Assembly (NCBI RefSeq): GCF_965641715.1
Contig: NZ_OZ282453.1
Source of the DNA: Escherichia coli
Lineage (GTDB): Bacteria; Pseudomonadota; Gammaproteobacteria; Enterobacterales; Enterobacteriaceae
DNA length: 64,000 nt
Strand: one strand, 5' to 3'
The position numbers and the translations under genes are program-made. The notes under the pieces were generated by a model. That model ran no database searches, was not told where the DNA came from, and worked only from the letters and a program-made list of their open reading frames with translations. This document shows, piece by piece, positions 1 to 38,111 of this stretch (positions within the stretch are counted from its first letter, which is position 1; every line of letters begins with the position of its first letter).

Positions 1-342
1 ACCGAGTTCCCGCACGCCGACGACATCACTATGCTGGGCGGTCACTCCTCTCATAGCTATCAGAACGGCACCAACATGTACTTCGTCTACGACTACAACG
101 TTGTCAACTGTAAGCCGGAAGAGGAAATCGACAAGTACCACAATCCGCTCAACAAAATCATTTGCGAAGAAACCATTCGCCTCGGTGGTTCGATGGTGCA
201 CCACCACGGTATCGGTAAACATCGCGTTCACTGGAGCAAGCTGGAACACGGCAGCGCGTGGGCGTTGCTGGAAGGGCTGAAAAAGCAGTTCGATCCTAAC
301 GGCATTATGAATACGGGTACTATCTATCCGATTGAAAAATAA
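1..342 (+). CDS. ygcU: FAD-linked oxidoreductase, C-terminal fragment (5' end lies outside window)
   Basis: Open frame runs from window edge to stop at 342 with no upstream stop in frame; name assigned from synteny immediately upstream of ygcS. Confidence 0.55.
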   Translation, partial: TEFPHADDITMLGGHSSHSYQNGTNMYFVYDYNVVNCKPEEEIDKYHNPLNKIICEETIRLGGSMVHHHGIGKHRVHWSKLEHGSAWALLEGLKKQFDPNGIMNTGTIYPIEK

Positions 343-435
343 TGTGTCAGGCAGCGTTCCGCGATGATGGGGCGTTGCCTTTTCGGCTTCTCAGGCGAGA
401 AGCCGTTCTTATTACCGGACAATGAAGGGGTAAAG

Positions 436-1773
436 ATGAACACTTCACCGGTGCGAATGGATGATTTACCGCTTAACCGTTTTCACTGTCGAATTGCTGC
501 GCTCACTTTCGGCGCGCACCTGACCGACGGTTATGTTCTCGGCGTCATTGGTTACGCCATTATTCAGCTTACGCCCGCCATGCAACTGACGCCGTTTATG
601 GCGGGAATGATCGGCGGCTCGGCGCTCCTTGGTTTGTTTCTTGGCAGCCTGGTTCTTGGGTGGATCTCCGACCATATTGGTCGGCAAAAAATCTTCACCT
701 TCAGCTTTTTGCTGATTACGCTCGCTTCGTTCTTGCAATTTTTTGCCACCACGCCAGAGCATCTTATTGGACTGCGCATTTTGATCGGCATTGGTCTGGG
801 AGGCGATTACTCAGTAGGTCACACCTTGCTGGCTGAATTTTCCCCGCGCCGCCATCGCGGTGTTTTGCTGGGCGCATTCAGCGTGGTGTGGACCGTAGGC
901 TATGTGTTGGCAAGTATTGCCGGACATCACTTTATTTCCGAAAACCCGGAGGCCTGGCGCTGGCTACTGGCATCGGCAGCTCTGCCCGCGTTGTTGATTA
1001 CGTTATTACGCTGGGGAACGCCAGAATCGCCACGCTGGCTACTGCGCCAGGGGCGTTTTGCAGAAGCTCACGCTATCGTGCATCGCTATTTTGGTCCCCA
1101 TGTTTTACTGGGCGATGAAGTGGCAACGGCGACCCATAAACACATCAAAACCTTGTTCTCTTCGCGCTACTGGCGGCGCACGGCGTTTAACAGCGTCTTC
1201 TTTGTCTGCCTCGTAATCCCATGGTTTGTGATTTATACCTGGCTGCCAACTATCGCCCAGACTATTGGACTGGAAGATGCGCTGACTGCCAGCCTGATGC
1301 TTAATGCGTTGTTAATTGTGGGCGCGCTGCTGGGATTAGTTCTGACGCACCTGCTGGCACATCGCAAGTTTTTGCTGGGAAGTTTTTTGCTGCTGGCGGC
1401 AACGCTGGTAGTGATGGCCTGTTTGCCTTCCGGCAGTTCATTAACGCTACTGCTTTTTGTTCTCTTCAGCACCACCATTTCGGCAGTCAGTAATCTGGTG
1501 GGCATTTTGCCTGCGGAAAGTTTTCCTACTGACATTCGCTCGCTGGGCGTCGGTTTTGCCACCGCCATGAGTCGGTTGGGGGCGGCGGTAAGTACTGGCC
1601 TGCTGCCGTGGGTGCTGGCGCAGTGGGGAATGCAAGTCACCTTATTGCTCCTGGCAGCAGTGTTGTTGGTTGGTTTTGTTGTAACCTGGCTATGGGCACC
1701 AGAAACCAAAGCACTCCCGCTGGTGGCGGCGGGAAATGTAGGAGGTGCGAATGAACATTCTGTTAGCGTTTAA
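436..1773 (+). CDS. ygcS: MFS-family transporter (445 aa)
   Basis: ORF 364..1773; internal ATG at 436 preceded by GAAGGGG RBS gives MNTSPVRMDD N-terminus; hydrophobic multi-helix protein. Confidence 0.85.
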   Translation: MNTSPVRMDDLPLNRFHCRIAALTFGAHLTDGYVLGVIGYAIIQLTPAMQLTPFMAGMIGGSALLGLFLGSLVLGWISDHIGRQKIFTFSFLLITLASFLQFFATTPEHLIGLRILIGIGLGGDYSVGHTLLAEFSPRRHRGVLLGAFSVVWTVGYVLASIAGHHFISENPEAWRWLLASAALPALLITLLRWGTPESPRWLLRQGRFAEAHAIVHRYFGPHVLLGDEVATATHKHIKTLFSSRYWRRTAFNSVFFVCLVIPWFVIYTWLPTIAQTIGLEDALTASLMLNALLIVGALLGLVLTHLLAHRKFLLGSFLLLAATLVVMACLPSGSSLTLLLFVLFSTTISAVSNLVGILPAESFPTDIRSLGVGFATAMSRLGAAVSTGLLPWVLAQWGMQVTLLLLAAVLLVGFVVTWLWAPETKALPLVAAGNVGGANEHSVSV

Positions 1774-2530
1774 AGCCGAACCGGATGCCGGAATGCTGGC
1801 GGAAAAAGAGTGGCAGGCGGCGGCTCAGGGTAATAGCGGACCGGATGTTTCGCTACTGCGAAGTTTACTCGGTGCTGATGAACAGGCTGCCGCCGCGCTG
1901 CTGTTGGCGCAGAGAAAAAACGGTACGTCGATGTCTTTAACCGCGTTGAGCATGGGGGATGAACGGGCGTTGCACTGGCTGCGCTATCTCATGGCTCTTG
2001 GGTTTGAGGAAGCTGTATTGTTGGAGACGGCGGCAGATCTGCGCTTTGCGCCGGAATTTGTCGCTCGCCATATTGCCGAATGGCAGCGTCAGAATCCGCT
2101 GGATCTGATAATTACCGGCTGCCAAAGCAGCGAAGGGCAGAATGGGCAAACGCCATTTTTGCTGGCGGAAATGCTGGGCTGGCCCTGCTTCACCCAGGTG
2201 GAGCGTTTCACTCTCGACGCGCCGTTTATCACCCTCGAACAGCGTACTGAACATGGGTTGCGTTGTTGCCGGGTTCGCTTGCCCGCGGTGATTGCCGTGC
2301 GTCAGTGCGGTGAAGTGGCCTTGCCAGTACCGGGAATGCGCCAGCGAATGGCTGCGGGGAAAGCAGAAATTATCCGTAAAACTGTTGCTGCCGAAATGCC
2401 AGCGATGCAGTGTCTGCAACTGGCAAGAGCAGAGCAACGACGTGGAGCGACGCTGATTGATGGGCAAACGGTAGCAGAAAAAGCGCAAAAGCTATGGCAG
2501 GACTATTTACGCCAAAGGATGCAGCCATGA
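1751..2530 (+). CDS. ygcR: Electron-transfer flavoprotein beta-subunit-like protein (259 aa)
   Basis: ATG at 1751 preceded by GGAGG; N-terminus MNILLAFK; followed with ATGA overlap by alpha-subunit-like gene. Confidence 0.85.
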   Translation: MNILLAFKAEPDAGMLAEKEWQAAAQGNSGPDVSLLRSLLGADEQAAAALLLAQRKNGTSMSLTALSMGDERALHWLRYLMALGFEEAVLLETAADLRFAPEFVARHIAEWQRQNPLDLIITGCQSSEGQNGQTPFLLAEMLGWPCFTQVERFTLDAPFITLEQRTEHGLRCCRVRLPAVIAVRQCGEVALPVPGMRQRMAAGKAEIIRKTVAAEMPAMQCLQLARAEQRRGATLIDGQTVAEKAQKLWQDYLRQRMQP

Positions 2531-3387
2531 ATATCGCAATTGTGACAATAAATCAGGAGAATGCCGCAATAGCAAGCTGGCTGGCGGCACAGGATTTCAG
2601 CGGTTGTACCCTGGCGCACTGGCAGATTGAACCTCAGCCTGTAGTGGCGGAACAGGTGCTGGATGCGTTGGTGGAACAGTGGCAGCGAACGCCTGCGGAC
2701 GTTGTTCTCTTTCCGCCGGGAACGTTTGGCGATGAACTGTCGACCCGGCTGGCTTGGCGTTTACATGGTGCAAGCATCTGCCAGGTGACTTCGTTAGATA
2801 TTCCAACCGTAAGCGTGCGCAAATCCCACTGGGGAAATGCGCTAACGGCGACGCTGCAAACAGAAAAACGCCCGCTATGCCTTTCCCTGGCGCGTCAGGC
2901 GGGAGCAGCGAAAAACGCCACGTTGCCCTCTGGAATGCAACAACTGAACATTGTCCCGGGTGCGCTTCCGGACTGGCTGGTTAGCACAGAGGATCTGAAA
3001 AATGTTACTCGCGACCCATTAGCTGAGGCCAGACGGGTGCTGGTGGTGGGGCAGGGCGGAGAGGCAGATAACCAGGAAATCGCTATGCTGGCAGAAAAGC
3101 TGGGAGCCGAAGTGGGCTACAGTCGGGCGCGAGTGATGAACGGTGGCGTTGATGCTGAAAAAGTGATTGGTATTTCCGGACATCTGCTGGCACCTGAGGT
3201 GTGTATTGTTGTTGGCGCTTCTGGCGCAGCAGCGTTAATGGCGGGCGTACGCAATAGCAAGTTTGTGGTGGCGATTAATCATGACGCCAGCGCAGCGGTA
3301 TTTTCACAGGCAGATGTTGGCGTGGTTGATGACTGGAAAGTGGTGCTGGAGGCACTGGTGACAAACATTGACGCAGAATGCCAATAA
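2527..3387 (+). CDS. ygcQ: Electron-transfer flavoprotein alpha-subunit-like protein (286 aa)
   Basis: ATG at 2527 overlapping ygcR stop; N-terminus MNIAIVT; C-terminal FAD-binding ETF-alpha-like motifs. Confidence 0.85.
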   Translation: MNIAIVTINQENAAIASWLAAQDFSGCTLAHWQIEPQPVVAEQVLDALVEQWQRTPADVVLFPPGTFGDELSTRLAWRLHGASICQVTSLDIPTVSVRKSHWGNALTATLQTEKRPLCLSLARQAGAAKNATLPSGMQQLNIVPGALPDWLVSTEDLKNVTRDPLAEARRVLVVGQGGEADNQEIAMLAEKLGAEVGYSRARVMNGGVDAEKVIGISGHLLAPEVCIVVGASGAAALMAGVRNSKFVVAINHDASAAVFSQADVGVVDDWKVVLEALVTNIDAECQ

Positions 3388-3393
3388 CGTGCT

Positions 3394-3500
3394 GCCGGAT
3401 GATCCTGCCTACGGTTCTGGACTGGGGACCTGTAGGCCTGATAAGACGTGTTAAGCGTCGCATCAGGCGCTGAATGTCGGATGTGGCGTGCGGCCTACAA
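3394..3500. repeat. REP (repetitive extragenic palindrome) element(s) between convergent ygcQ and ygcP
   Basis: Sequence tgtaggcctgataagacgtgttaagcgtcgcatcaggcg plus a second partial copy ending gcggcctacaa; imperfect palindromes typical of E. coli REP. Confidence 0.6.
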
Positions 3501-3534
3501 ATCAAACCAAATTCAATTGGTTACGATTATCCCG

Positions 3535-4110
3535 TCAAAGCAATTTTTTCGCTAACGTCCAGACTCCGGTATTCGTGGTGGAAAGCGCCACGACACCCGC
3601 GTTAATCGCATTACGCGCATCTTCTTCATCGCATACCAGCCCGCCAGCAATCAGCGGTTGGCGGATTTTTTCCGTCACCCAGCCCAGCACTTTGGGCATG
3701 CAGCCTGGCAGGATCTCAATACAATCCGGATTCGATTGCGCAACTTGCTTATCAATGTTGTGAAACGAAATCGAATCAACAATAAACAGGCGATGAATAC
3801 AGAAAAAACCTTCCGCTCTTGCCGCTTTTAGCATCGATGCTTTGGTGCTGATAATGCCGTCCGCCTCGGTCACCAGTTTCAAAAACTGAATCACGACTTC
3901 TTTATTTGACGCGCCTTCCAGCAAATCAACATGAATAAAAGCATATTTCCCGGCGTTCTTAATCTTTTTAACGATATTACTGATGGTGCAGATATTGCCG
4001 TACAACACGGAAATAAACTGGCATTCAGAGTCGATTGCCAGTTGCAGGCTGGCATTATCTTTTACGGCAGCAATCACCGGATTCTGGCGGAGCAGGTGTA
4101 AGAGGGGCAT
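3535..4110 (-). CDS. ygcP: GlpP-like glycerol-3-phosphate-responsive antiterminator family protein (191 aa)
   Basis: ORF 191 aa, N-terminus MPLLHLLRQNPVIAAVKD; synteny with ygcN/ygcO. Confidence 0.8.
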   Translation of the reverse strand: MPLLHLLRQNPVIAAVKDNASLQLAIDSECQFISVLYGNICTISNIVKKIKNAGKYAFIHVDLLEGASNKEVVIQFLKLVTEADGIISTKASMLKAARAEGFFCIHRLFIVDSISFHNIDKQVAQSNPDCIEILPGCMPKVLGWVTEKIRQPLIAGGLVCDEEDARNAINAGVVALSTTNTGVWTLAKKLL

Positions 4111-4126
4111 AAATTATCCTTATTAT

Positions 4127-4387
4127 TTATCCAAAGCGGTAGGTGATGCCGAATCCGGAAGGTGGATAGCGCCACTGTTGTAGTGTTGATTCGTCGCACA
4201 GCAAACGGCAGGTGCCGCACTCAAGGCAACCGCGATAATCAACACGCAAGTCGCCTTCCGGCGTGAGCGCAAAAAGACCTGCCGGGCAGGCGTTAATCAA
4301 CCGTTCTGCCGTCTGGCGCTCAACGGAGTCAGCCGGAACAATGTGCGGCGCATCAGCAACGCGCCAGAGATTACGGGCTACAGACAT
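4127..4387 (-). CDS. ygcO: Ferredoxin-like protein (FixX-like, 86 aa)
   Basis: ORF 4127..4423; internal start giving MSVARNLWRV; cysteine motif CLECGTCRLLC; overlaps ygcN stop. Confidence 0.75.
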   Translation of the reverse strand: MSVARNLWRVADAPHIVPADSVERQTAERLINACPAGLFALTPEGDLRVDYRGCLECGTCRLLCDESTLQQWRYPPSGFGITYRFG

Positions 4388-5649
4388 CGCAGACTCCTGA
4401 TAACATCGCCCGCCAGATGCCACAGGCCATGACGACGTAAATGACGCCAGAATAACTGGCGCAGCGGTGGAACAGGTTTATCACCCTGATCCCATAAATC
4501 GCGGGAAATATCCTGCATTAACGCAGGCCACGCCCGATACCAGCCAGGGCGTTGCAAAAGCGCCGGAACATGCTGATAACGTTGTAGAACATCCCACAGC
4601 AGGCTGCGCTCTACGTTGTGATGATAAAGCGGAAACAGATTTTGCGGCTCGCGGTGCTGGCAGGCGCTTATCAGTGTTTGTGCCGCCGCCTGCGCGCCAG
4701 TTAGCGCCGTATCCATGCCGCGCACGGAAATTCCGGTATTGACGCAACTGCGCAACGCATCGCCTACCAGCAGCCAGCCGTTACCGGCGTATTGCACTGG
4801 CATACTGTGCAAGCCACCTTCTGGCACCAGATGCGCACCATACTCCAGTGATTCCGTGTTTTTGATAAGCGGGCGCACTGCCGGATGCGCTTTAAAGCGA
4901 GTCAGCAGCTCGCTTGCCGGAACACGACTTTGCGTAAGGGAAGAGAGCGGGCAAACAATCCCTAACGAGAGCGTTTGTTGATTAGTATAAAGAAATGCGC
5001 CGCCGGGAAAGTCATCACAGATTCCGCCGCTGAACAGCAACGCTGCGCCTTCGTTATTCTCCAGATGAAAACGTTCTTCAATAGCGGATGTTTCCAGCGA
5101 CAGCACTTCTTTGATCCCCAACGCCATCGCTTCGCCAGCAGGACGAGTCACTAATCCGTGACGTTCAGCCAGGACGCTGTTGGCACCTTCTGCCAGCACC
5201 ACATAACGGGCGCGGAGAATATCGTCACCACAAATGACACCACACACCCTGCCGTCTTCTTCATACAGAGCATCCACCGTCGCACCAGGGATGCATTCGA
5301 CACCTTCTTTTTCGGCTTCGGCAACCAGCCACGGATCGAACCGTGCACGTAATACACTCCAGGATTCACCGCCGGGCTGTAAGCTGGAAAACGTCGTTGC
5401 GCCATCGGGCGTTAACAGGGAAAGGCTTTCGTGAGTGATGCGTCGTTCAAGAGGCGCGGTCAGATGAAATTGCGGGAGGAGTTCCGCGAGTGCATGGGTA
5501 TATAACCGCCCGCCGGAAAGATTTTTGCTGCCGGGGATTTCAGCGCGTTCCAGTAACAAAACGGATAAACCCGCTCGCGCGCAGCGTAACGCGCAAGCGG
5601 TGCCTGCAATACCGGCACCAATAATAATAATGTCGCAGTCGTCTTCCAT
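4378..5649 (-). CDS. ygcN: FAD-dependent oxidoreductase (FixC / ETF-quinone-oxidoreductase-like, 423 aa)
   Basis: Internal start giving MEDDCDIIIIGAGIAGTACA with GxGxxG dinucleotide-binding motif. Confidence 0.85.
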   Translation of the reverse strand: MEDDCDIIIIGAGIAGTACALRCARAGLSVLLLERAEIPGSKNLSGGRLYTHALAELLPQFHLTAPLERRITHESLSLLTPDGATTFSSLQPGGESWSVLRARFDPWLVAEAEKEGVECIPGATVDALYEEDGRVCGVICGDDILRARYVVLAEGANSVLAERHGLVTRPAGEAMALGIKEVLSLETSAIEERFHLENNEGAALLFSGGICDDFPGGAFLYTNQQTLSLGIVCPLSSLTQSRVPASELLTRFKAHPAVRPLIKNTESLEYGAHLVPEGGLHSMPVQYAGNGWLLVGDALRSCVNTGISVRGMDTALTGAQAAAQTLISACQHREPQNLFPLYHHNVERSLLWDVLQRYQHVPALLQRPGWYRAWPALMQDISRDLWDQGDKPVPPLRQLFWRHLRRHGLWHLAGDVIRSLRCL

Positions 5650-5726
5650 GTCATGCCCCAGATATCCTGAACACAACACCCTAACATAGCGTTACTTAAG
5701 GGAAATTGACCGCCGACACACTCTTA

Positions 5727-6092
5727 TCATTCGCCGCGATAGATACAACCAGCGGTGCAGGTTTCTTTTACCATCACCGCACTTAACAGCGGCACAACGG
5801 GTTTAACCTGATCCCAAATCCATTTTGCTAAAACTTCGCTGGTTGGGTTTTCCAGACCTGGAATATCATTGAGATAATGGTGATCGAGGCGCTCATAAGT
5901 TGGCTTAAACGCCGCTTTTAGTTCAGCGAAATCGATAATCCAGCCCGTATGCGGATCGACTTCCCCGGTAATTTCCAGTCGCACCATAAAGGAATGCCCG
6001 TGCAGGCGACCACATTTATGCCCTTCCGGGACGTGTGGTAAGCGGTGAGCGGCTTCGAAGGTGAAATCTTTAAATAACGTGGTGGACATCAT
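5727..6092 (-). CDS. queD: 6-carboxy-5,6,7,8-tetrahydropterin synthase (queuosine biosynthesis)
   Basis: ORF 5727..6176; internal start giving [33 protein letters not shown], the QueD/PTPS zinc-binding signature. Confidence 0.9.
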
Positions 6093-6407
6093 AATTTCTC
6101 TACAGGACGATAAAACCGCCGTAGAGTACCGGAAAGGCTGTTTTTTCGCATTATCTAAAACGACTTTGTTGCGCAAAATCGCTGATTTATCTTAATGATT
6201 GGCTAAATTCATTTGTTTTTCATTAGGTTGGTTAATCTATTTTGTTGTTAAAGACTATTGCTAAAACAGGTTAGTCGATTTGGTTATTAGTTATCGCTAT
6301 CCCGTCTTTAATCCACACCGTTCACCCCGTTAACCTTACCTTCTCTTCTGTTTTATGGGCGCTGACAGGGCGCAGAAACAGCTTTGCTTACTGGAACATA
6401 ACGACGC

Positions 6408-8207
6408 ATGACGACACAGGTCCCACCTTCCGCGTTGCTTCCGTTGAACCCGGAGCAACTGGCACGCCTTCAGGCGGCCACGACCGATTTAACTCCCACC
6501 CAGCTTGCCTGGGTTTCTGGCTATTTCTGGGGCGTACTCAATCAGCAGCCTGCTGCGCTTGCAGCGACGCCAGCGCCAGCCGCAGAAATGCCGGGTATAA
6601 CTATTATCTCCGCCTCGCAAACCGGCAATGCGCGCCGGGTTGCTGAAGCATTACGCGATGATTTATTAGCAGCAAAACTGAACGTTAAGCTGGTGAACGC
6701 GGGCGACTATAAATTCAAACAAATCGCCAGCGAAAAACTGCTCATCGTAGTGACGTCAACGCAAGGGGAAGGGGAACCGCCGGAAGAAGCCGTCGCGCTG
6801 CATAAGTTCCTGTTCTCCAAAAAAGCGCCGAAGCTGGAAAATACCGCTTTTGCCGTGTTTAGCCTCGGCGATAGTTCTTATGAATTTTTCTGCCAGTCCG
6901 GGAAAGATTTCGACAGCAAGCTGGCGGAACTGGGCGGTGAACGCCTGCTCGACCGTGTCGATGCCGACGTTGAATACCAGACCGCTGCCAGCGAGTGGCG
7001 CGCCCGCGTGGTTGATGCGCTTAAATCGCGTGCGCCTGTCGCGGCACCTTCGCAATCCGTCGCTACTGGCGCGGTAAATGAAATCCACACCAGCCCGTAC
7101 AGCAAAGACGCGCCGCTGGTGGCGAGCCTCTCTGTTAACCAGAAAATTACCGGGCGTAACTCTGAAAAAGACGTTCGCCATATCGAAATTGACTTAGGTG
7201 ACTCGGGCCTGCGTTACCAGCCGGGTGACGCGCTGGGTGTCTGGTATCAGAACGATCCGGCACTGGTAAAAGAACTTGTCGAACTGCTGTGGCTGAAAGG
7301 CGATGAACCTGTCACCGTCGAGGGCAAAACGTTGCTTCTGAACGAAGCGCTACAGTGGCACTTCGAACTGACCGTCAACACCGCCAACATTGTTGAGAAT
7401 TACGCCACGCTTACCCGCAGCGAAACACTGCTGCCGCTGGTGGGCGATAAAGCGAAGTTACAGCATTACGCCGCGACGACGCCGATTGTTGACATGGTGC
7501 GTTTCTCCCCGGCACAGCTTGATGCCGAAGCGCTAATTAATCTGCTGCGCCCGCTGACGCCGCGTCTCTATTCCATTGCCTCCTCGCAGGCGGAAGTGGA
7601 AAGTGAAGTGCACGTCACCGTTGGTGTCGTTCGTTATGACATTGAAGGCCGCGCCCGTGCGGGTGGTGCCTCCAGCTTCCTCGCGGACCGCGTGGAAGAA
7701 GAGGGTGAAGTCCGCGTCTTTATCGAACATAACGACAACTTCCGCCTGCCCGCTAACCCGGAAACCCCGGTGATTATGATTGGCCCAGGCACCGGCATCG
7801 CGCCGTTCCGCGCCTTTATGCAGCAACGCGCCGCCGACGAAGCGCCGGGCAAAAACTGGCTGTTCTTTGGCAACCCGCACTTTACGGAAGATTTCCTCTA
7901 CCAGGTGGAATGGCAGCGTTACGTCAAAGAGGGCGTGCTGACACGTATCGATCTCGCCTGGTCGCGCGATCAAAAAGAAAAAGTTTACGTACAAGACAAA
8001 CTGCGCGAACAGGGCGCGGAGCTGTGGCGCTGGATCAATGACGGTGCCCACATTTATGTCTGCGGCGACGCTAATCGCATGGCGAAAGACGTTGAGCAGG
8101 CACTTCTGGAAGTGATTGCCGAATTTGGTGGCATGGACACCGAAGCGGCGGATGAATTTTTAAGTGAGCTGCGCGTAGAGCGCCGTTATCAGCGAGATGT
8201 CTACTAA
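6408..8207 (+). CDS. cysJ: Sulfite reductase [NADPH] flavoprotein alpha subunit (599 aa)
   Basis: 599 aa ORF, N-terminus [21 protein letters not shown]; flavodoxin and FAD/NADPH domains; stop overlaps cysI start. Confidence 0.97.
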
Positions 8208-9919
8208 TGAGCGAAAAACATCCAGGGCCTTTAGTGGTCGAAGGAAAACTGACAGACGCCGAGCGCATGAAGCTTGAAAGCAACTACCTGCGCGGCACCA
8301 TTGCGGAAGATTTAAACGACGGTCTGACCGGCGGCTTTAAGGGCGACAACTTCCTGCTGATCCGCTTCCACGGCATGTATCAGCAGGATGACCGCGACAT
8401 CCGCGCCGAACGTGCTGAACAGAAGCTGGAGCCGCGCCATGCGATGCTGTTGCGCTGCCGTCTGCCGGGTGGCGTGATCACCACCAAACAGTGGCAGGCG
8501 ATAGACAAATTTGCCGGTGAAAACACCATCTATGGCAGCATTCGCCTGACCAACCGCCAGACGTTTCAGTTCCACGGCATTCTGAAAAAGAACGTCAAAC
8601 CGGTGCACCAGATGCTGCACTCAGTCGGTCTTGATGCGCTGGCGACCGCTAACGACATGAACCGTAACGTACTCTGCACCTCGAACCCTTACGAGTCGCA
8701 GCTGCACGCAGAAGCGTACGAGTGGGCGAAGAAAATCTCTGAACATCTGCTGCCTCGTACCCGCGCGTATGCGGAGATCTGGCTCGATCAGGAAAAAGTC
8801 GCCACCACCGATGAAGAACCGATCCTCGGTCAGACTTATTTGCCGCGTAAATTCAAAACCACGGTAGTGATCCCGCCACAGAACGATATCGATCTGCACG
8901 CCAACGACATGAACTTCGTGGCGATCGCCGAAAACGGCAAGCTGGTGGGCTTTAACCTGTTGGTGGGCGGTGGGCTTTCCATCGAACACGGCAACAAGAA
9001 AACCTACGCCCGCACGGCGAGCGAGTTTGGCTATCTGCCGCTGGAGCATACGCTGGCGGTGGCGGAAGCCGTCGTGACAACTCAGCGTGACTGGGGTAAC
9101 CGAACCGATCGTAAAAATGCCAAAACCAAATACACGCTGGAGCGCGTGGGGGTTGAGACGTTTAAAGCGGAAGTGGAGCGTCGCGCGGGGATCAAATTCG
9201 AGCCGATTCGCCCGTATGAGTTTACCGGACGCGGAGATCGTATTGGCTGGGTTAAGGGCATTGATGATAACTGGCACCTGACGCTGTTTATCGAAAATGG
9301 TCGCATCCTTGATTATCCGGGGCGTCCGCTGAAAACCGGCCTGCTGGAGATCGCGAAGATCCACAAAGGTGATTTCCGCATTACGGCGAACCAGAATCTG
9401 ATCATCGCCGGTGTGCCGGAAAGCGAGAAAGCGAAGATCGAGAAGATCGCCAAAGAGAGCGGGTTAATGAATGCCGTCACGCCGCAGCGTGAAAACTCAA
9501 TGGCCTGCGTCTCGTTCCCGACTTGCCCGCTGGCGATGGCGGAAGCGGAGCGTTTCCTGCCGTCTTTTATCGACAACATCGATAATTTAATGGCGAAACA
9601 TGGTGTCAGCGATGAGCATATCGTGATGCGTGTAACAGGCTGCCCGAACGGTTGTGGTCGCGCGATGCTGGCGGAAGTGGGCCTGGTGGGTAAAGCGCCG
9701 GGTCGCTACAACCTGCATCTTGGCGGCAACCGTATTGGGACACGTATCCCACGGATGTATAAAGAAAACATCACCGAGCCGGAAATCCTGGCGTCGCTTG
9801 ATGAACTGATAGGGCGCTGGGCGAAAGAGCGCGAAGCGGGTGAAGGCTTCGGCGACTTTACGGTGCGTGCGGGCATCATTCGCCCGGTGCTCGATCCGGC
9901 GCGCGATTTGTGGGATTAA
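8207..9919 (+). CDS. cysI: Sulfite reductase [NADPH] hemoprotein beta subunit (570 aa)
   Basis: 570 aa ORF, N-terminus [15 protein letters not shown]; C-terminal CPNGC siroheme/4Fe-4S motif. Confidence 0.97.
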
Positions 9920-11085: not shown

Positions 11086-13752
11086 ATGGAACCTTTTAAA
11101 TATATATGCCATTACTGGGGAAAATCCTCAAAAAGCCTGACGAAAGGAAATGATATTCATCTGTTAATTTATCATTGCCTTGATGTTGCTGCTGTTGCAG
11201 ATTGCTGGTGGGATCAATCAGTCGTACTGCAAAATACTTTTTGCCGAAATGAAATGCTATCAAAACAGAGGGTGAAGGCCTGGCTGTTATTTTTCATTGC
11301 TCTTCATGATATTGGAAAGTTTGATATACGATTCCAATATAAATCAGCAGAAAGTTGGCTGAAATTAAATCCTGCAACGCCATCACTTAATGGTCCATCA
11401 ACACAAATGTGCCGTAAATTTAATCATGGTGCAGCCGGTCTGTATTGGTTTAACCAGGATTCACTTTCAGAGCAATCTCCCGGGGATTTTTTCAGTTTTT
11501 TTGATGCCGCTCCTCATCCTTATGAGTCCTGGTTTCCATGGGTAGAGGCCGTTACAGGACATCATGGTTTTATATTACATTCCCAGGATCAAGATAAGTC
11601 GCGTTGGGAAATGCCAGCTTCTCTGGCATCTTATGCTGCGCAAGATAAACAGGCTCGTGAGGAGTGGATATCTGTACTCGAAGCATTATTTTTAACGCCA
11701 GCCGGGTTATCTATAAACGATATACCACCTGATTGTTCATCACTGTTAGCAGGTTTTTGCTCGCTTGCTGACTGGTTAGGTTCCTGGACCACAACGGATA
11801 CCTTTCTTTTCAAAGAAGATGCACCTTCAGGAATACAAGCGCTAAGAACATATTTTCAGGATAGACAGCAGGATGCGTGTCGGGTACTGGCGCTGAGTGG
11901 CCTTGTATCAAATAAGCGTCGTTATGACGGTGTACATGCCTTACTGGACAATGGCTATCAACCAAGACAATTACAGGTGTTGGTCGATGCTCTTCCTACA
12001 GCTCCCGGGCTGACGGTGATTGAGGCACCTACGGGATCAGGTAAAACCGAAACAGCGCTGGCCTATGCCTGGAAACTTATTGACCAACAACTTGCGGAGA
12101 GTGTTATTTTTGCCCTCCCTACACAAGCTACTGCAAATGCAATGCTCAGCAGAATGGAAGCGAACGCGAGCCGTTTATTTACCTCCCCAAATCTTATTCT
12201 TGCTCATGGTAATTCACGTTTTAACCACCTTTTTCAATCAATAAAATCACGCGCATTTACTGAGCAGGGGCAAGAAGAAGCGTGGGTTCAGTGTTGTCAG
12301 TGGTTGTCACAAAGCAATAAGAAAGTGTTTCTTGGGCAAATCGGCGTTTGCACTATTGATCAGGTGTTGATATCGGTATTGCCAGTTAAACACCGCTTTA
12401 TCCGTGGTTTGGGAATTGGTCGAAGTGTTTTAATTGTTGATGAAGTTCATGCTTACGACACCTATATGAACGGCTTGCTGGAGGCAGTGCTCAAGGCTCA
12501 GGCTGATGTGGGAGGGAGTGTTATTCTTCTTTCCGCAACCCTACCAATGAAACAAAAACAGAAACTTCTGGATACTTATGGTCTGCATACAGATCCAGTG
12601 GAAAATAACTCCGCATATCCACTTATTAACTGGCGAGGTGTGAATGGTGCGCAACGTTTTGATCTGCCAGCTCATCCAGAACAACTCCCGCCCCGCTTTT
12701 CGATTCAGCCAGAACCTATTTATTTAGCTGACATGTTACCTGACCTTACGATGTTAGAGCGAATGATCGCAGCGGCAAACGCGGGTGCACAAGTCTGCCT
12801 CATTTGCAATTTGGTTGACGTTGCACAACTATGCTTCCAACGGCTAAAGGAACTAAATGACACGCAAGTAGATATAGATTTGTTTCATGCGCGCTTTACG
12901 CTGAACGATCGTCGTGAAAAAGAGAATCGTGTCATTAGCAATTTCGGAAAAAATGGGGAGCGAAATGTTGGACGAATACTTGTCGCCACCCAGGTCGTGG
13001 AACAATCACTCGATGTAGATTTTGATTGGTTAATTACCCAGCATTGTCCCGCTGATTTGCTTTTCCAACGATTAGGCCGTTTACATCGCCATCATCGTAA
13101 ATATCGTCCCGCCGGTTTTGAGATTCCTCTGGCAACCGTTTTGCTGCCTGATGGCGAAGGTTACGGACGACATGAGCATATTTATAGCAACGTTAGAGTC
13201 ATGTGGCGGACGCAGCAACATATTGAGGAACTTAATGGAGCATCCTTATTTTTCCCTGATGCCTACCGGCAATGGCTGGATAGCATTTACGATGATGCTG
13301 AAATGGATGAGCCAGAATGGGTCATCAAAGGCATGGATAAGTTTGAAAGCGCTGAGTGTGAAAAGAGGTTCAAGGCTCGCAAGGTTCTGCAGTGGGCTGA
13401 AGAATATAGTTTGCAGGATAACGATGAAACCATTCTTGCGGTAACGAGGGATGGGGAAATGAGCCTGCCATTATTGCCTTATGTACAAACGTCTTCAGGT
13501 AAACAACTGCTCGATGGCCAGGTCTACGAGGACCTAAGTCATGAACAGCAGTATGAGGCTTTAGCACTTAATCGCGTCAATGTGCCATTTACCTGGAAAC
13601 GTAGTTTTTCTGAAGTAGTCGATGAAGATGGGTTACTTTGGCTGGAAGGAAGGCAGAATCAGGATGGATGGATCTGGCAGGGTAACAGTATTGTTATTAC
13701 CTACACTCGGGATGAAGGGATGACCAGAGTCATCCCTGCAAATCCCAAATAA
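11086..13752 (+). CDS. cas3: Cas3 nuclease/helicase, type I-E (888 aa)
   Basis: 888 aa; N-terminal HD domain (LLIYHCLDVAAV...HDIGKF), helicase Walker A GSGKTE and DEVH box; RBS AGGGAGG before ATG at 11086. Confidence 0.97.
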   Translation: MEPFKYICHYWGKSSKSLTKGNDIHLLIYHCLDVAAVADCWWDQSVVLQNTFCRNEMLSKQRVKAWLLFFIALHDIGKFDIRFQYKSAESWLKLNPATPSLNGPSTQMCRKFNHGAAGLYWFNQDSLSEQSPGDFFSFFDAAPHPYESWFPWVEAVTGHHGFILHSQDQDKSRWEMPASLASYAAQDKQAREEWISVLEALFLTPAGLSINDIPPDCSSLLAGFCSLADWLGSWTTTDTFLFKEDAPSGIQALRTYFQDRQQDACRVLALSGLVSNKRRYDGVHALLDNGYQPRQLQVLVDALPTAPGLTVIEAPTGSGKTETALAYAWKLIDQQLAESVIFALPTQATANAMLSRMEANASRLFTSPNLILAHGNSRFNHLFQSIKSRAFTEQGQEEAWVQCCQWLSQSNKKVFLGQIGVCTIDQVLISVLPVKHRFIRGLGIGRSVLIVDEVHAYDTYMNGLLEAVLKAQADVGGSVILLSATLPMKQKQKLLDTYGLHTDPVENNSAYPLINWRGVNGAQRFDLPAHPEQLPPRFSIQPEPIYLADMLPDLTMLERMIAAANAGAQVCLICNLVDVAQLCFQRLKELNDTQVDIDLFHARFTLNDRREKENRVISNFGKNGERNVGRILVATQVVEQSLDVDFDWLITQHCPADLLFQRLGRLHRHHRKYRPAGFEIPLATVLLPDGEGYGRHEHIYSNVRVMWRTQQHIEELNGASLFFPDAYRQWLDSIYDDAEMDEPEWVIKGMDKFESAECEKRFKARKVLQWAEEYSLQDNDETILAVTRDGEMSLPLLPYVQTSSGKQLLDGQVYEDLSHEQQYEALALNRVNVPFTWKRSFSEVVDEDGLLWLEGRQNQDGWIWQGNSIVITYTRDEGMTRVIPANPK

Positions 13753-29366: not shown

Positions 29367-30506
29367 ATGAGCGCGGGAAGCCCAAAATTCACCGTTCGCC
29401 GCATTGCGGCTTTGTCACTGGTTTCGCTATGGCTGGCAGGCTGTTCTGACACTTCAAATCCACCGGCACCGGTCAGCTCCGTTAATGGCAATGCGCCTGC
29501 AAATACCAATTCTGGTATGTTGATTACGCCGCCGCCGAAAATGGGGACGACGTCTACAGCGCAGCAACCGCAAATTCAGCCGGTACAGCAGCCACAAATT
29601 CAGGCTACTCAACAACCGCAAATCCAGCCAGTGCAGCCAGTAGCTCAGCAGCCGGTACAGATGGAAAACGGACGCATCGTCTATAACCGTCAGTATGGGA
29701 ACATTCCGAAAGGCAGTTATAGCGGCAGTACCTATACCGTGAAAAAAGGCGACACACTTTTCTATATCGCCTGGATTACTGGCAACGATTTCCGTGACCT
29801 TGCTCAGCGCAACAATATTCAGGCACCATACGCGCTGAACGTTGGTCAGACCTTACAGGTGGGGAATGCTTCCGGTACGCCAATCACTGGCGGAAATGCC
29901 ATTACCCAGGCCGACGCAGCAGAGCAAGGAGTTGTGATCAAGCCTGCACAAAATTCCACCGTTGCTGTTGCGTCGCAACCGACAATTACGTATTCTGAGT
30001 CTTCGGGTGAACAGAGTGCTAACAAAATGTTGCCGAACAACAAGCCAACTGCGACCACGGTCACAGCGCCTGTAACGGTACCAACAGCAAGCACAACCGA
30101 GCCGACTGTCAGCAGTACATCAACCAGTACGCCTATCTCCACCTGGCGCTGGCCGACTGAGGGCAAAGTGATCGAAACCTTTGGCGCTTCTGAGGGGGGC
30201 AACAAGGGGATTGATATCGCAGGCAGCAAAGGACAGGCAATTATCGCGACCGCAGATGGCCGCGTTGTTTATGCCGGTAACGCGCTGCGCGGCTACGGTA
30301 ATCTGATTATCATCAAACATAATGATGATTACCTGAGTGCCTACGCCCATAACGACACAATGCTGGTCCGGGAACAACAAGAAGTGAAGGCGGGGCAAAA
30401 AATAGCAACCATGGGTAGCACCGGAACCAGTTCAACACGCTTGCATTTTGAAATTCGTTACAAGGGGAAATCCGTAAACCCGCTGCGTTATTTGCCGCAG
30501 CGATAA
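29367..30506 (+). CDS. nlpD: Murein hydrolase activator lipoprotein NlpD (LysM + M23 peptidase domains, 379 aa)
   Basis: 379 aa; lipobox LAGCS; Q/P-rich repeats; C-terminal M23 motifs; rpoS promoter is known to lie within this gene (established knowledge, not mapped). Confidence 0.95.
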
Positions 30507-30568
30507 ATCGGCGGAACCAGGCTTTTGCTTGAATGTTCCGTCAAGGGATCACGGGTAGGAGCCACCTT

Positions 30569-31561
30569 ATGAGTCAGAATACGCTGAAAGTTCATGATTT
30601 AAATGAAGATGCGGAATTTGATGAGAACGGAGTTGAGGTTTTTGACGAAAAGGCCTTAGTAGAAGAGGAACCCAGTGATAACGATTTGGCCGAAGAGGAA
30701 CTGTTATCGCAGGGAGCCACACAGCGTGTGTTGGACGCGACTCAGCTTTACCTTGGTGAGATTGGTTATTCACCACTGTTAACGGCCGAAGAAGAAGTTT
30801 ATTTTGCGCGTCGCGCACTGCGTGGAGATGTCGCCTCTCGCCGCCGGATGATCGAGAGTAACTTGCGTCTGGTGGTAAAAATTGCCCGCCGTTATGGCAA
30901 TCGTGGTCTGGCGTTGCTGGACCTTATCGAAGAGGGCAACCTGGGGCTGATCCGCGCGGTAGAGAAGTTTGACCCGGAACGTGGTTTCCGCTTCTCAACA
31001 TACGCAACCTGGTGGATTCGCCAGACGATTGAACGGGCGATTATGAACCAAACCCGTACTATTCGTTTGCCGATTCACATCGTAAAGGAGCTGAACGTTT
31101 ACCTGCGAACCGCACGTGAGTTGTCCCATAAGCTGGACCATGAACCAAGTGCGGAAGAGATCGCAGAGCAACTGGATAAGCCAGTTGATGACGTCAGCCG
31201 TATGCTTCGTCTTAACGAGCGCATTACCTCGGTAGACACCCCGCTGGGTGGTGATTCCGAAAAAGCGTTGCTGGACATCCTGGCCGATGAAAAAGAGAAC
31301 GGTCCGGAAGATACCACGCAAGATGACGATATGAAGCAGAGCATCGTCAAATGGCTGTTCGAGCTGAACGCCAAACAGCGTGAAGTACTGGCACGTCGAT
31401 TCGGTTTGCTGGGGTACGAAGCGGCAACACTGGAAGATGTAGGTCGTGAAATTGGCCTCACCCGTGAACGTGTTCGCCAGATTCAGGTTGAAGGCCTGCG
31501 CCGTTTGCGCGAAATCCTGCAAACGCAGGGGCTGAATATCGAAGCGCTGTTCCGCGAATAA
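30569..31561 (+). CDS. rpoS: RNA polymerase sigma factor RpoS (sigma-38), full length 330 aa
   Basis: ORF 30533..31561; ATG at 30569 gives [25 protein letters not shown]; no premature stop. Confidence 0.97.
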
Positions 31562-31577
31562 GTAAGCATCTGTCAGA

Positions 31578-31609
31578 AAGGCCAGTCTCAAGCGAGGCTG
31601 GCCTTTTTC
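31578..31609 (+). terminator. rho-independent terminator downstream of rpoS
   Basis: aaaggccagtctcaagcgaggctggcctttttctttt: GC stem then T-run. Confidence 0.7.
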
Positions 31610-31680
31610 TTTTGTTTGGGAAGCTTGTGTTTTTGTCGCCTGGATAAGACACGTCAGCGTCCTACCCGGCAATTTGCATC

Positions 31681-32088
31681 CTATGTGTTCATCATCTTGC
31701 GCACCAGCTGCACAAACAGCTCCTGCTCTTCTGCACTCAAACGCCCCAAAAATTCCTCATCCACGCTGTCACCAATCGGTATCGCCGCAGCAAGTATCTT
31801 TTCTCCTTCGGCAGTCAGCCAGACAAAGCGACGCCGCTTGTCAGCGGCATCATGTTCACGTCTGACTAAGCCACGATTCTCCATTCTTGCCAACATTTCT
31901 GCCAACGTTGCTTTGGTGCTGACTGCTGCTTCTATCAGTGCCACCTGTTCGATACCAGGCTTATCAGCAATGGCGCGCATCACCGCATACTGTGGTTTGG
32001 TCAGGTCAGGTAACTCGTGCTGCCAGCGAGCCGTGTGCTGCTGAAAAAGCTGTCGTAACTGATGGAACGCTTTATTTCGTAACGCCAT
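31681..32088 (-). CDS. MarR/SlyA-family transcriptional regulator (135 aa)
   Basis: 135 aa with winged-helix region (KPQYAVMRAIADKPGIEQVALIEAAVSTKATLAEMLARMENRGLVRR); divergent from decarboxylase genes. Confidence 0.8.
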   Translation of the reverse strand: MALRNKAFHQLRQLFQQHTARWQHELPDLTKPQYAVMRAIADKPGIEQVALIEAAVSTKATLAEMLARMENRGLVRREHDAADKRRRFVWLTAEGEKILAAAIPIGDSVDEEFLGRLSAEEQELFVQLVRKMMNT

Positions 32089-32234
32089 GTAAACTCCGGG
32101 CTAATTCTCTGTCGCTATCATAGCGGTTTTTTAGTGACGAAGAAGATGTTGTTACTTTTCAATCCTTGTCGCTGTGGAAATGAAGGAGTATGTTAATAAT
32201 AATGTTCGTATACGAACAATTAAGAGAATAAGCA

Positions 32235-32828
32235 ATGAAACTGATCGTCGGGATGACAGGGGCTACCGGTGCGCCTCTTGGTGTGGCATTACTGCAAGCG
32301 CTGCGGGAGATGCCGAATGTCGAGACTCATCTGGTGATGTCGAAGTGGGCGAAAACCACCATTGAACTGGAAACGCCTTACAGCGCCCGCGATGTTGCTG
32401 CCCTCGCTGACTTCAGCCATAACCCGGCGGATCAGGCGGCGACCATCTCCTCAGGTTCCTTTCGTACCGACGGCATGATCGTTATTCCGTGCAGTATGAA
32501 AACGCTCGCCGGTATCCGCGCTGGTTACGCTGATGGCCTGGTAGGGCGCGCGGCGGACGTCGTGCTCAAAGAAGGCCGCAAACTGGTGCTGGTGCCGCGT
32601 GAAATGCCGCTTAGCACCATCCATCTCGAAAATATGCTCGCACTTTCACGCATGGGCGTGGCGATGGTGCCGCCGATGCCTGCCTTTTATAACCATCCCG
32701 AAACGGTAGATGACATTGTCCACCATGTGGTAGCCCGCGTGCTGGATCAATTTGGCCTCGAACATCCCCACGCCAGGCGCTGGCAAGGATTGCCGCAGGC
32801 CCGGAATTTTTCTCAGGAGAATGAATAA
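32235..32828 (+). CDS. UbiX/Pad1-family flavin prenyltransferase (prenyl-FMN synthase; BsdB/EcdB-like, 197 aa)
   Basis: 197 aa, N-terminus MKLIVGMTGATGAPLGVALLQAL, typical of UbiX flavoprotein family. Confidence 0.85.
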   Translation: MKLIVGMTGATGAPLGVALLQALREMPNVETHLVMSKWAKTTIELETPYSARDVAALADFSHNPADQAATISSGSFRTDGMIVIPCSMKTLAGIRAGYADGLVGRAADVVLKEGRKLVLVPREMPLSTIHLENMLALSRMGVAMVPPMPAFYNHPETVDDIVHHVVARVLDQFGLEHPHARRWQGLPQARNFSQENE

Positions 32829-34255: not shown

Positions 34256-34265
34256 GGAGAACAAG

Positions 34266-34502
34266 ATGATTTGTCCACGTTGTGCCGATGAACAGATTGA
34301 AGTGATGGCGAAATCGCCGGTGAAAGATGTCTGGACGGTATATCAGTGCCAGCATTGCCTTTATACCTGGCGCGATACCGAACCGCTGCGCCGTACCAGC
34401 CGCGAACATTATCCCGAAGCGTTCCGCATGACGCAGAAAGATATTGATGACGCGCCAATGGTGCCGAGCATTCCGCCGCTGCTGGCGGAAGGTAAGCGCT
34501 AA
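34266..34502 (+). CDS. Small zinc-ribbon subunit of phenolic acid decarboxylase (BsdD/EcdD-like, 78 aa)
   Basis: 78 aa with CPRC...CQHC motif; immediately downstream of UbiD-like gene. Confidence 0.7.
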   Translation: MICPRCADEQIEVMAKSPVKDVWTVYQCQHCLYTWRDTEPLRRTSREHYPEAFRMTQKDIDDAPMVPSIPPLLAEGKR

Positions 34503-34542
34503 TAAAAAGTGCCGGGTAGTGGCTTTGCTTTACCCGGCCTCA

Positions 34543-35199: not shown

Positions 35200-35304
35200 G
35201 GTTTTACCCTGTAAAATAAGCTTTCCTATTATACAGGGTATTTTTATTTGATTCGTCAGCTGTAGATAATATTCCCGATAGTATTTTTCTACCGGGAATT
35301 ATAA

Positions 35305-37866: not shown

Positions 37867-38111
37867 GGGGTTATGTCCGGTTCCCTGATATTAAATGGGG
37901 TGTGATGGTTTTTATTTTCGTTGTAATCACATAAGGCGCACATGATACCGGAGTTAATCATTTCAGGGGAAGAAGCGAACGGCGAGTTCTTGATGCTGGT
38001 TCCGGGAAAGATGCTGTTTTGCAGCTTTTGCGTGATGCTTATGAAGCAAGTACGCAAAATTGCGTCGGTTGAATAAACCTCCTCCTTCAGAGCCATAGTC
38101 CCCTTTCAAAT

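Follow-up and report, generated by a model that had tools for sequence, protein, structure and literature searches.

A ten-gene catabolic cluster of Escherichia coli predicted to be controlled by CRP and by a GlpP-type antitermination leader

What do the ygc genes of Escherichia coli degrade, and how are they controlled? The block from ygcE to ygcN is among the larger gene blocks of E. coli K-12 that are still without a function. Six of its genes (ygcS, ygcR, ygcQ, ygcP, ygcO and ygcN) lie at the beginning of the stretch of DNA analyzed here (the window: 64,000 nucleotides of contig NZ_OZ282453.1, RefSeq assembly GCF_965641715.1). An earlier note on this DNA had described them as a self-contained catabolic or electron-bifurcating unit with an undefined substrate. 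In line with this last point, the literature searched by gene name and keyword contains no assignment of a substrate, and the ten proteins of the cluster to which the six genes belong all stay below the cutoffs of the NCBIfam equivalogs (June 2026 release). We propose, with a probability of about 0.6, that the six genes encode the regulator, an accessory transporter and an accessory electron-disposal chain of a ten-gene catabolic cluster controlled by CRP and antitermination. To the left of the window, the matching E. coli record has ygcW, encoding a short-chain dehydrogenase/reductase (SDR), and then the divergent yqcE and ygcE, encoding a major facilitator superfamily (MFS) transporter and an FGGY kinase. 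In the full layout, ygcE-yqcE diverges from ygcW-ygcU-ygcS-ygcR-ygcQ, which converges on ygcP-ygcO-ygcN. The genes are known and annotated; what is new is the leader RNA and its proposed role in the control of the cluster. The leader and promoter part of the regulation model is well supported.

The 318-bp spacer between ygcW and yqcE, left of the window, has just before each start codon a very strong terminator hairpin with a tail of 8-9 U residues (-46 and -35 kcal/mol, with z-scores of -5.9 and -3.5). Directly 5' of each terminator, in E. coli A30 and K-12 alike, lies an RTTACY sequence able to pair with an RGTAAY that is part of the terminator's 5' arm. Both belong to an element with the consensus RTTACY-AGAG-N-GAGAAA-RGTAAY-TTCC, which is found in MG1655 (NC_000913.3) at 2900298-2900361 (minus strand) and 2900506-2900567 (plus strand), and in locus L001, left of the window, at 3739-3804 (minus) and 3940-4008 (plus). 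The element recurs directly upstream of SDR, YqcE-type MFS, BCCT, YgcU or kinase genes across Proteobacteria, Bacillota, Spirochaetes and Actinomycetota. In an alignment of 54 sequences, UUAC, GAG.A and GUAA are invariant, and the antiterminator helix is 96% paired, compared with at most 56% in slid-partner controls. One base pair that was not imposed by the search pattern covaries: 34 sequences have G-C, 20 have A-U, and none leaves it unpaired. The lower stem of the terminator is likewise well supported in the alignment. Because the 7-bp hairpin alone (-1.4 to -6.7 kcal/mol) is much weaker than the terminator (-22 to -34 kcal/mol), termination is expected to be the default, and a stabilizing factor would be needed for read-through. 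Rfam 15 has no family at gathering score on the E. coli spacer and no credible match on the leaders, and at E ≤ 0.01 it has no match at the element positions in loci L003, L048 and L058. Judged by sequence comparison, the YgcP-type leader is new and is not covered by Rfam. A search of the whole window with the leader model found no copy, including upstream of ygcN.

Which protein could stabilize the weak hairpin? Residues 12-184 of YgcP cover positions 1-173 of the 173-position G3P_antiterm profile (PF04309, 1.4e-62), and the earlier description of YgcP as GlpP-like is correct. Homologues from Bacillota, Spirochaetes and Actinomycetota share 43-62% identity with YgcP. In Bacillus subtilis, GlpP with glycerol-3-phosphate relieves the terminator in the 5' untranslated region (5'-UTR) of glpD, glpFK and glpTQ (PMC9604022). 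A scan based on a YgcP alignment, with one genome per species, yielded 80 loci; 8 further loci were added, and the ten E. coli proteins were mapped onto all of them. The scan loci span Enterobacterales, Vibrionaceae, Listeria, Bacillus, Halobacillus, Clostridia, Spirochaetes and Actinomycetota. A conserved core, consisting of the SDR YgcW, the flavoenzyme YgcU and the FGGY kinase YgcE, is present in 79 loci from at least four phyla, and YgcP stands alongside in 75 of these. Where YgcP and the core occur together, 74 of 75 loci carry the leader element, compared with 0 of the 4 loci that have the core without YgcP and 1 of the 9 that have a YgcP-like protein without the core. At least two of the four core loci without YgcP (L002, L003) have a sigma-54 activator nearby. 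YgcP is predicted to regulate both leaders, that of ygcW and that of yqcE, in trans.

The same family membership raises another possibility, that YgcP senses ordinary glycerol-3-phosphate and the cluster is an alternative route for glycerol or glycerophosphodiesters. This possibility draws on the full PF04309 domain and on the 47-52% identity of YgcP to clostridial GlpP-like proteins encoded beside glycerol-3-phosphate-dehydrogenase-like genes. Two of the nine core-less YgcP-like loci (L063, L088) were examined; the gene lies beside a DAO plus BFD flavoprotein and a partner oxidoreductase, neighbors that look like a clostridial glycerol-3-phosphate dehydrogenase cluster. However, these classical loci lack the YgcP-type leader element, the ygc cluster has its own transporters and a kinase nearer to LsrK than to GlpK, and YgcU has the catalytic residues of alkyl-dihydroxyacetone-phosphate (alkyl-DHAP) synthase (AGPS), not a GlpD-type fold. 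Moreover, E. coli already has glpK, glpD and glpABC. We consider the glycerol route improbable. L088 (10700-10850, plus strand) and L063 (13720-13830, minus strand) have no YgcP-type element but show a small hairpin, whose loop also contains two GA-rich repeats (GCATGAGAATTGGAGT, GCATGGAGATTTTTGAGT), and then a terminator. GA-rich loop repeats may be a general recognition theme of the GlpP family.

Where do the leader transcripts begin and end? In Bacillota and Spirochaetes, every element has in front of it a -35 box, in most cases TTGACA, and a TATAcT-type -10 box. The two boxes are about 17 nt apart, and the -10 box ends about 7-9 nt before the element, which places the start of the RNA at the element. 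Each of the 66 unique upstream regions from gamma-proteobacteria has a CRP-like site with no more than two mismatches (24 of the sites are perfect), and in 59 of them the center of the site lies 43-44 nt before the element. For these predicted sites, the spacing is that of class II CRP promoters (about -41.5). Published data fit in the same spacer of E. coli. Chromatin immunoprecipitation sequencing of CRP in enterotoxigenic E. coli found TGTGATTACGATCACA between ygcW and yqcE (PMC4287617), footprint-seq gave an in vitro Kd of CRP of about 1.7 nM at the ygcW/yqcE site (PMC12871828), and Genomic SELEX (systematic evolution of ligands by exponential enrichment) reported RpoD promoters and an H-NS flag in the spacer (PMC3946193). 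RNA-seq of E. coli K-12 listed two "potential novel sRNAs" (small RNAs), ecr2774 of 73 nt on the ygcW strand and ecr2775 of 63 nt on the yqcE strand, the latter flagged with a double hash sign (PMC4681348 Table S5), and a figure legend of that paper describes a northern blot of a small RNA upstream of yqcE. The 5' ends of the two RNAs are 139 nt apart, which corresponds to transcripts that each begin 2-4 nt ahead of RTTACY, at a distance of about 41-42 nt from the CRP site. With an offset of 1977 bp between genome versions, their 3' ends map to the U tracts or slightly beyond them. We read ecr2774 and ecr2775 as probably terminated leader transcripts, not independent sRNAs; this reading is not that of the published paper. 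The control RNA has, on this reading, already been observed in E. coli without being explained.

How widespread and how constrained is the cluster? The comparison of genome context that had been suggested for Enterobacteriaceae was carried beyond that family to the 79 core loci, and it made the kinase, the SDR and YgcU the core, with the electron-transfer flavoprotein (ETF) as an accessory. In Escherichia, Citrobacter, Serratia, Limnobaculum and Budvicia, the ten genes stay together within differing genomic surroundings, and the gene order around ygcS is kept in Serratia fonticola and Limnobaculum parvum. ETF genes accompany the core in about 45 of the 79 loci. YgcN and YgcO are confined to Enterobacterales (31 of 40 core loci there, 0 of 39 elsewhere). 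A dedicated ETF is missing beside the core in Erwiniaceae, Listeria, Halobacillus and the actinomycetes. Since the core is kept without them in many lineages, the genes for ETF and for ETF-quinone oxidoreductase (ETF-QO) appear accessory. YgcW and YgcU retain 70-79% identity from E. coli to Firmicutes, which indicates a widespread and tightly constrained pathway. Between E. coli and Citrobacter, identity is 97% for YgcW and YgcP, 93% for YgcU and 62-76% for YgcQ, YgcR and YgcN. The ratio of nonsynonymous to synonymous substitution rates (dN/dS) is well below 1 for all ten genes (0.01-0.43), which indicates purifying selection throughout. In the same genome pairs, it is 0.01-0.06 for ygcW, ygcU, ygcP and ygcE (0.01-0.05 for ygcP alone) and 0.07-0.43 for ygcR, ygcQ, ygcO and ygcN (ygcR 0.08-0.29, ygcQ 0.11-0.43). 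By this measure, the latter four genes are functional but 3-10 times less constrained than the core, and the redox module is, on comparative grounds, accessory to a more fundamental kinase/SDR/YgcU module. An unusual within-species polymorphism of ygcRQ, suggested by two "E. coli" loci (L009, L011) with 87-89% protein identity, was rejected because both have about 91% DNA identity throughout, cysJ included; faster evolution of the ETF genes explains the low identity.

These data also bear on whether the cluster of E. coli is a silenced, decaying remnant that has lost its function. The literature searched reports no phenotype or inducing condition, a published table flags H-NS at the ygcW/yqcE spacer (PMC3946193), evolution of the ETF genes is fast, and truncated ygcP and ygcU variants are found in some Shigella and E. 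coli strains. Yet the stretch is matched in 5425 of 5426 complete E. coli genomes, 5092 of which cover at least 80% of an 8-kb query, the genes in the window are intact, every gene has a dN/dS well below 1, and both leaders are transcribed and terminated as the model expects. A cluster locked by two leader terminators would itself explain the failure to find an inducing condition. A functionless remnant is hardly credible in view of this.

Within the window, the cluster is laid out as follows.

1-342, plus strand: 3' end of ygcU, a FAD-linked oxidase related to alkyl-DHAP synthase (FAD-oxidase_C, 1.3e-15); its start lies left of the window
364-1773, plus strand: ygcS, MFS transporter (Pfam Sugar_tr 1.1e-52, MFS_1 5e-39)
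1751-2530, plus strand: ygcR, ETF beta-type subunit (Pfam ETF 4.6e-17)
2527-3387, plus strand: ygcQ, ETF alpha-type subunit with a FAD-binding domain (ETF_alpha 1.1e-17)
3435-3508, both strands: palindromic element like the repetitive extragenic palindromes (REP) in the convergent ygcQ/ygcP gap (weak Rfam naRNA4)
3535-4110, minus strand: ygcP, GlpP-family antiterminator protein (Pfam G3P_antiterm 1.4e-62, full profile)
4127-4387, minus strand: ygcO, small FixX-like, ferredoxin-like protein (weak Fer4_9; NCBIfam FixX 5e-24)
4378-5649, minus strand: ygcN, FixC/ETF-QO-like flavoprotein (Pfam DAO and ETFQO_UQ-bd)
5650-5726, minus strand: spacer from the queD stop to the ygcN start (no leader element or terminator)

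The window is a piece of Escherichia chromosome; its first 8 kb are 98.5% identical in DNA to the RefSeq record of E. coli A30, and the open reading frames (ORFs) agree with its annotation. The six ORFs are intact, and the names and domains given to them in the earlier note agree with RefSeq and Pfam. The span it assigned to them, 364-5679, is right at its start. Its end is an in-frame GTG upstream of the RefSeq start of ygcN at 5649, and the span omits the 3' end of ygcU (1-342) and the continuation of the cluster past the left edge of the window. ygcS starts 21 nt past ygcU and overlaps ygcR, which puts it inside the ygcW-ygcU-ygcS-ygcR-ygcQ operon; the start of ygcQ overlaps the stop of ygcR by 4 nt, and ygcO and ygcN overlap by 10 nt. 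Since the genes ygcU, ygcS, ygcR and ygcQ on one side and ygcN, ygcO and ygcP on the other overlap or nearly abut, they form two convergent operons. The REP-like element between them is the only match, and a weak one, in an Rfam scan of the window: the REP-derived family naRNA4 scores 27.6 bits on both strands, against a gathering score of 59.5. It is probably the 3' boundary of both operons. The 5650-5726 spacer contains no terminator-like site on either strand, and with neither leader element nor terminator, ygcNOP should be outside YgcP control here. These genes may be read through from queD, which lies beyond ygcN on the minus strand and is followed by cysJIH on the plus strand. The adjoining cysJIH had given the idea of a cleavage of 2,3-dihydroxypropane-1-sulfonate or another sulfonate, which was rejected: the adjacency is limited to Enterobacteriaceae, and no sulfite-handling genes travel with the cluster. 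Separately, a terminator-like hairpin with 9 bp, 6 G-C pairs and a T-rich tail lies at 384-405 (plus strand), 20 nt into the ygcS coding sequence; it may be due to chance, as the scan gave 13 terminator-like sites when 7.8 were expected.

What, then, do the four redox proteins do? YgcN matches the FixC of Thermotoga maritima (PDB 7koe_C) at 1.6e-56. In NCBIfam, it scores 378 bits with PRK10015 and 363 bits with FixC (cutoff 610), and YgcO scores 84 bits with FixX (cutoff 166), all under the cutoffs. By these scores, YgcN and YgcO are paralogues of FixC and FixX, not equivalogs. The best PDB match of YgcR is the ETF beta subunit of Paracoccus (3.4e-12), and that of YgcQ is human ETF alpha (8e-23), with LctC at 7.5e-22; the N-terminal ETF domain of YgcQ is only partial in Pfam. 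Non-bifurcating ETFs (1efv, 1efp, 5ow0) score as high as or higher than the bifurcating 7koe, 4kpu and 5ol2, in a similarity test that does not discriminate between the two kinds, and bifurcation by YgcR/Q appears unsupported. The assignment of FixABCX-type components is right for YgcN and YgcO and does not extend specifically to YgcR and YgcQ as FixA and FixB. Nor are the four genes one co-regulated unit: ygcRQ close the ygcW operon, and ygcNO share the convergent ygcP operon, which has no leader.

A self-contained and possibly bifurcating FixABCX-type unit that oxidizes a substrate imported by YgcS could still appeal to the likeness of YgcN/YgcO to FixC/FixX and to the position of the ETF genes next to a transporter gene. 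It is contradicted by the lack of a substrate dehydrogenase among the six genes, as the flavoenzyme gene associated with the ETF genes is ygcU; this gene, like those of YgcW, YgcE and YqcE, lies outside 364-5679, and the core enzymes encoded there are more conserved. It is also contradicted by the dispensability of ETF and ETF-QO in many core-bearing lineages and by YgcR/Q being no closer to bifurcating ETFs, with every NCBIfam Fix equivalog cutoff missed. Such a unit is very unlikely; the six genes are not self-contained, and bifurcation is without support.

The position of the ETF genes suggests a different role. In most non-enterobacterial loci with ETF, etfBA are directly downstream of ygcU, and in Budvicia ygcN-ygcO are inside the operon controlled by the leader element. 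On these grounds, the simplest reading is a chain from YgcU to YgcR/Q, then to YgcN/O and to quinone, and YgcU is probably the partner of the ETF. The direction of flow could also be the opposite, with YgcN/O and YgcR/Q passing electrons from quinol or NADH to YgcU for a reductive step. FixABCX has been proposed to feed the reduction of crotonobetainyl-CoA in anaerobic carnitine metabolism, which is the model for this view, and fixABCX and ydiQRST of E. coli are generally thought to feed reductases. YgcN is nearest to the FixC of a reversible bifurcating complex, an AGPS-type flavin requires no net oxidant, and ETF is commonest in anaerobes and facultative anaerobes. On the other hand, a FixCX partner is missing outside Enterobacterales, enzymes of the vanillyl-alcohol oxidase (VAO)/AGPS fold typically oxidize their substrates, and CRP control points to the catabolism of a carbon source. 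We regard reverse flow as unlikely, though worth keeping in mind. Some loci have a second, longer FAD_binding_4 oxidase directly after etfB-etfA (L003 13241-14782, L004 13283-14845 and L005 9789-11417, and also L048, L051 and L056). In it, the GlcD/LctD-type xEH motif replaces HHH; E. coli has no counterpart of this second oxidase.

Clues to the chemistry come mostly from YgcU. Its best solved relatives are alkyl-DHAP synthases (2.8e-40), with glycolate oxidase and LctD well behind. R262, Y398 and H438-440 of YgcU align to Arg419, Tyr578 and His615-617 of AGPS, and the identities of AGPS positions were confirmed by the R419H and Y578F mutant PDB entries in the same search output. The catalytic Arg, Tyr and HHH are invariant in all 69 members of the YgcU family. 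In the C-terminal GG...HG.G segment, YgcU has HHH and not the xEH that marks the D-2-hydroxyacid dehydrogenases GlcD and LctD. YgcU has 484 residues and AGPS 584-658, and YgcU lacks an equivalent of about 150 residues at the N-terminus of AGPS (the alignment starts at Cavia residue 215 with YgcU 60, and at Dictyostelium residue 138 with YgcU 51). In AGPS, the N-terminal region helps to form the tunnel for the lipid (fatty alcohol or acyl) substrate; its absence from YgcU argues against a lipid. The comparison points to a 1-substituted DHAP-like substrate for YgcU. Among solved structures, LsrK and glycerol kinases, which add phosphate to the primary hydroxyl of a terminal diol, come closest to YgcE, and KduD comes closest to YgcW. 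Taken with a regulator from a glycerol-3-phosphate-sensing family, the relatives of YgcU, YgcE and YgcW suggest a substrate with a glycerol-like end.

The transporters say something about the rest of the molecule. They differ by lineage: YqcE-type MFS transporters are in the regulon in 53 loci and BCCT transporters in 12, several of the latter directly behind the leader element. OpuAC-type ABC systems are also included (in the operon in Gracilibacillus); these were accepted only if confirmed by Pfam (L069, L002) or beside an OpuAC binding protein. A neighbor cluster of "Opu ATPases" was rejected, since it mixes unrelated ABC ATPases (Opp-like in L004, Znu-like in L006 and probably GsiA in Pantoea). 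Genes of the MttB methyltransferase family or Fae/GFA genes sometimes adjoin the cluster. These neighbors hint at a methylated-amine moiety in many taxa, whereas the E. coli transporters appear to resemble organic-anion carriers. YgcS scores 183 bits, under the cutoff, with the NCBIfam aromatic acid/H+ symporter subfamily. The literature on single genes adds little: overexpression of YgcS aids production of nicotinamide mononucleotide, an engineering observation and not a native function, deletion of ygcU leaves D-serine signaling unaffected, and matches for "ygcO" in a review of the nitrogen phosphotransferase system (PTS-Ntr) were discarded as misspellings of ycgO.

Several neighborhoods are recorded here in their own right. 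In Erwiniaceae and Serratia proteamaculans (L040, L042 and L044-L047, about 4400-8900, minus strand), a YgcS-type MFS gene is in a separate operon beside a gene for a LysR-family regulator, together with genes for an aldehyde dehydrogenase, an aldo-keto reductase and a Fae-like protein (formaldehyde-activating enzyme family). The same trio precedes BCCT-SDR-YgcU-kinase in the unrelated locus L006 (5081-7390). A gene of the proline racemase family is beside an OpuAC-type transporter in three loci of Bacillota (L068, L071 and L080; about 16300-17300 in L071), and a SurE-family phosphatase gene follows the kinase gene in two loci of Spirochaetes (including L061, 16523-17302).

How might the parts work together? 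In our model, two divergent class II CRP-dependent promoters would fire in the ygcW/yqcE spacer. In each leader, the weak 7-bp hairpin would compete with the strong terminator for the RGUAAY segment, and by default transcription would stop, leaving RNAs of about 63-73 nt. YgcP, made from the separate ygcNOP operon and loaded with a phosphorylated pathway intermediate, as GlpP is with glycerol-3-phosphate, would stabilize the hairpin, and transcription could then continue into both operons. The kinase YgcE would phosphorylate an imported compound with a glycerol-like end, and YgcW would oxidize the product to the 2-ketone. The resulting 1-substituted DHAP-like compound would be attacked at C1 by YgcU with flavin (N5) chemistry of the alkyl-DHAP synthase type. 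Where the flavin is left reduced, YgcR/Q would take up the electrons and, in Enterobacterales, YgcN/O would carry them on to quinone.

A bolder version would make the leader a new, phylum-spanning class of protein-dependent antiterminator RNA and have the core run the head-group synthesis of ether lipids in reverse. A soluble 1-substituted glycerol would be phosphorylated, oxidized to the 1-substituted DHAP and cleaved, with flavin chemistry of the AGPS type, to DHAP and the released group; ETF and YgcN/O would re-oxidize the flavin if the cleavage is oxidative. Candidate substrates are a glyceryl ether or thioether, e.g., the backbone of a deacylated betaine lipid, and the BCCT and OpuAC transporters in the regulon and the neighboring MttB and Fae genes are the basis of the hint at a methylated amine. 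We offer this version tentatively, as a speculation that may well prove wrong.

Some observations weigh against the model of a ten-gene, YgcP-controlled catabolic cluster. The link between YgcP and the leader is one of co-occurrence only (74/75 vs 0/4), and ygcNOP in E. coli is not preceded by the element. The placement of the sRNAs assumes the offset of about 1977 bp between MG1655 versions, of which the 139-nt spacing and the lengths are independent. The core is found without a dedicated ETF in 34 of 79 loci, AGPS chemistry is redox-neutral overall, so that the need for an ETF is not obvious, and in six loci of anaerobes or facultative anaerobes the ETF adjoins the second GlcD-type oxidase, which may be the real ETF partner there. 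Lastly, the transporter classes (MFS, BCCT and OpuAC-type ABC) vary by taxon, and the substrate may vary too.

If the model is true, the very small group of GlpP-type antitermination systems gains in the leader and YgcP a second, differently specified member, its first from Gram-negatives, and alkyl-DHAP synthase chemistry extends to the catabolism of a soluble substrate. The terminator lock offers a direct route to finding the compound that is degraded. Outside the cluster, an 888-aa ORF at 11086-13752 (plus strand) corresponds to the cas3 gene of a type I-E CRISPR-Cas region that, in the matching E. coli record, extends beyond it; in that record, a CRISPR array is left of ygcE. Positions 30000-38000 of the window hold the mutS-rpoS region with hydroxyarylic acid decarboxylase genes, a variable segment of which at least 80% is covered in 809 of the 5426 genomes.

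Four known systems resemble parts of the cluster. FixABCX (T. maritima 7koe; fixABCX and ydiQRST of E. coli) has counterparts in the FixC-like YgcN, the FixX-like YgcO and the ETF beta and alpha subunits YgcR/Q. However, all four Ygc proteins are under the NCBIfam Fix cutoffs, YgcR/Q score at least as well against the ETFs of human and Paracoccus as against FixAB, and the ygc genes are divided between two convergent operons as an accessory, fast-evolving module. The LctBCD lactate dehydrogenase/Etf complex of Acetobacterium woodii (7qh2) likewise has the gene of a VAO-fold FAD dehydrogenase beside etfB-etfA, with YgcU matching LctD at 5.5e-22 and YgcQ matching LctC as given above (7.5e-22). 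In contrast to the GlcD/LctD enzymes with their xEH, YgcU has HHH, and YgcQ is without the N-terminal ferredoxin domain. AGPS (4bby, 2uuu) shares with YgcU the FAD_binding_4 and C-terminal cap (FAD-oxidase_C) domains and the catalytic residues; YgcU differs in its shorter N-terminus and in its genetic setting, a catabolic operon that also encodes transporters, an SDR, a kinase and in many cases an ETF. GlpP of B. subtilis is the model for the control. It too is a PF04309 regulator that acts on a promoter, a protein-binding site and an intrinsic terminator in the 5'-UTR before the first gene (PMC9604022), and its regulon also includes transporters and the kinase that would make the phosphorylated inducer. 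Unlike GlpP, the YgcP type has the RUUACY..AGAG..GAGAAA..RGUAAY motif, which was not found in classical GlpP-like loci, and a regulon of an SDR, an AGPS-like flavoenzyme and an FGGY kinase, with or without ETF, instead of glycerol genes. The YgcP type also occurs in Gram-negatives, where it is combined with class II CRP promoters.

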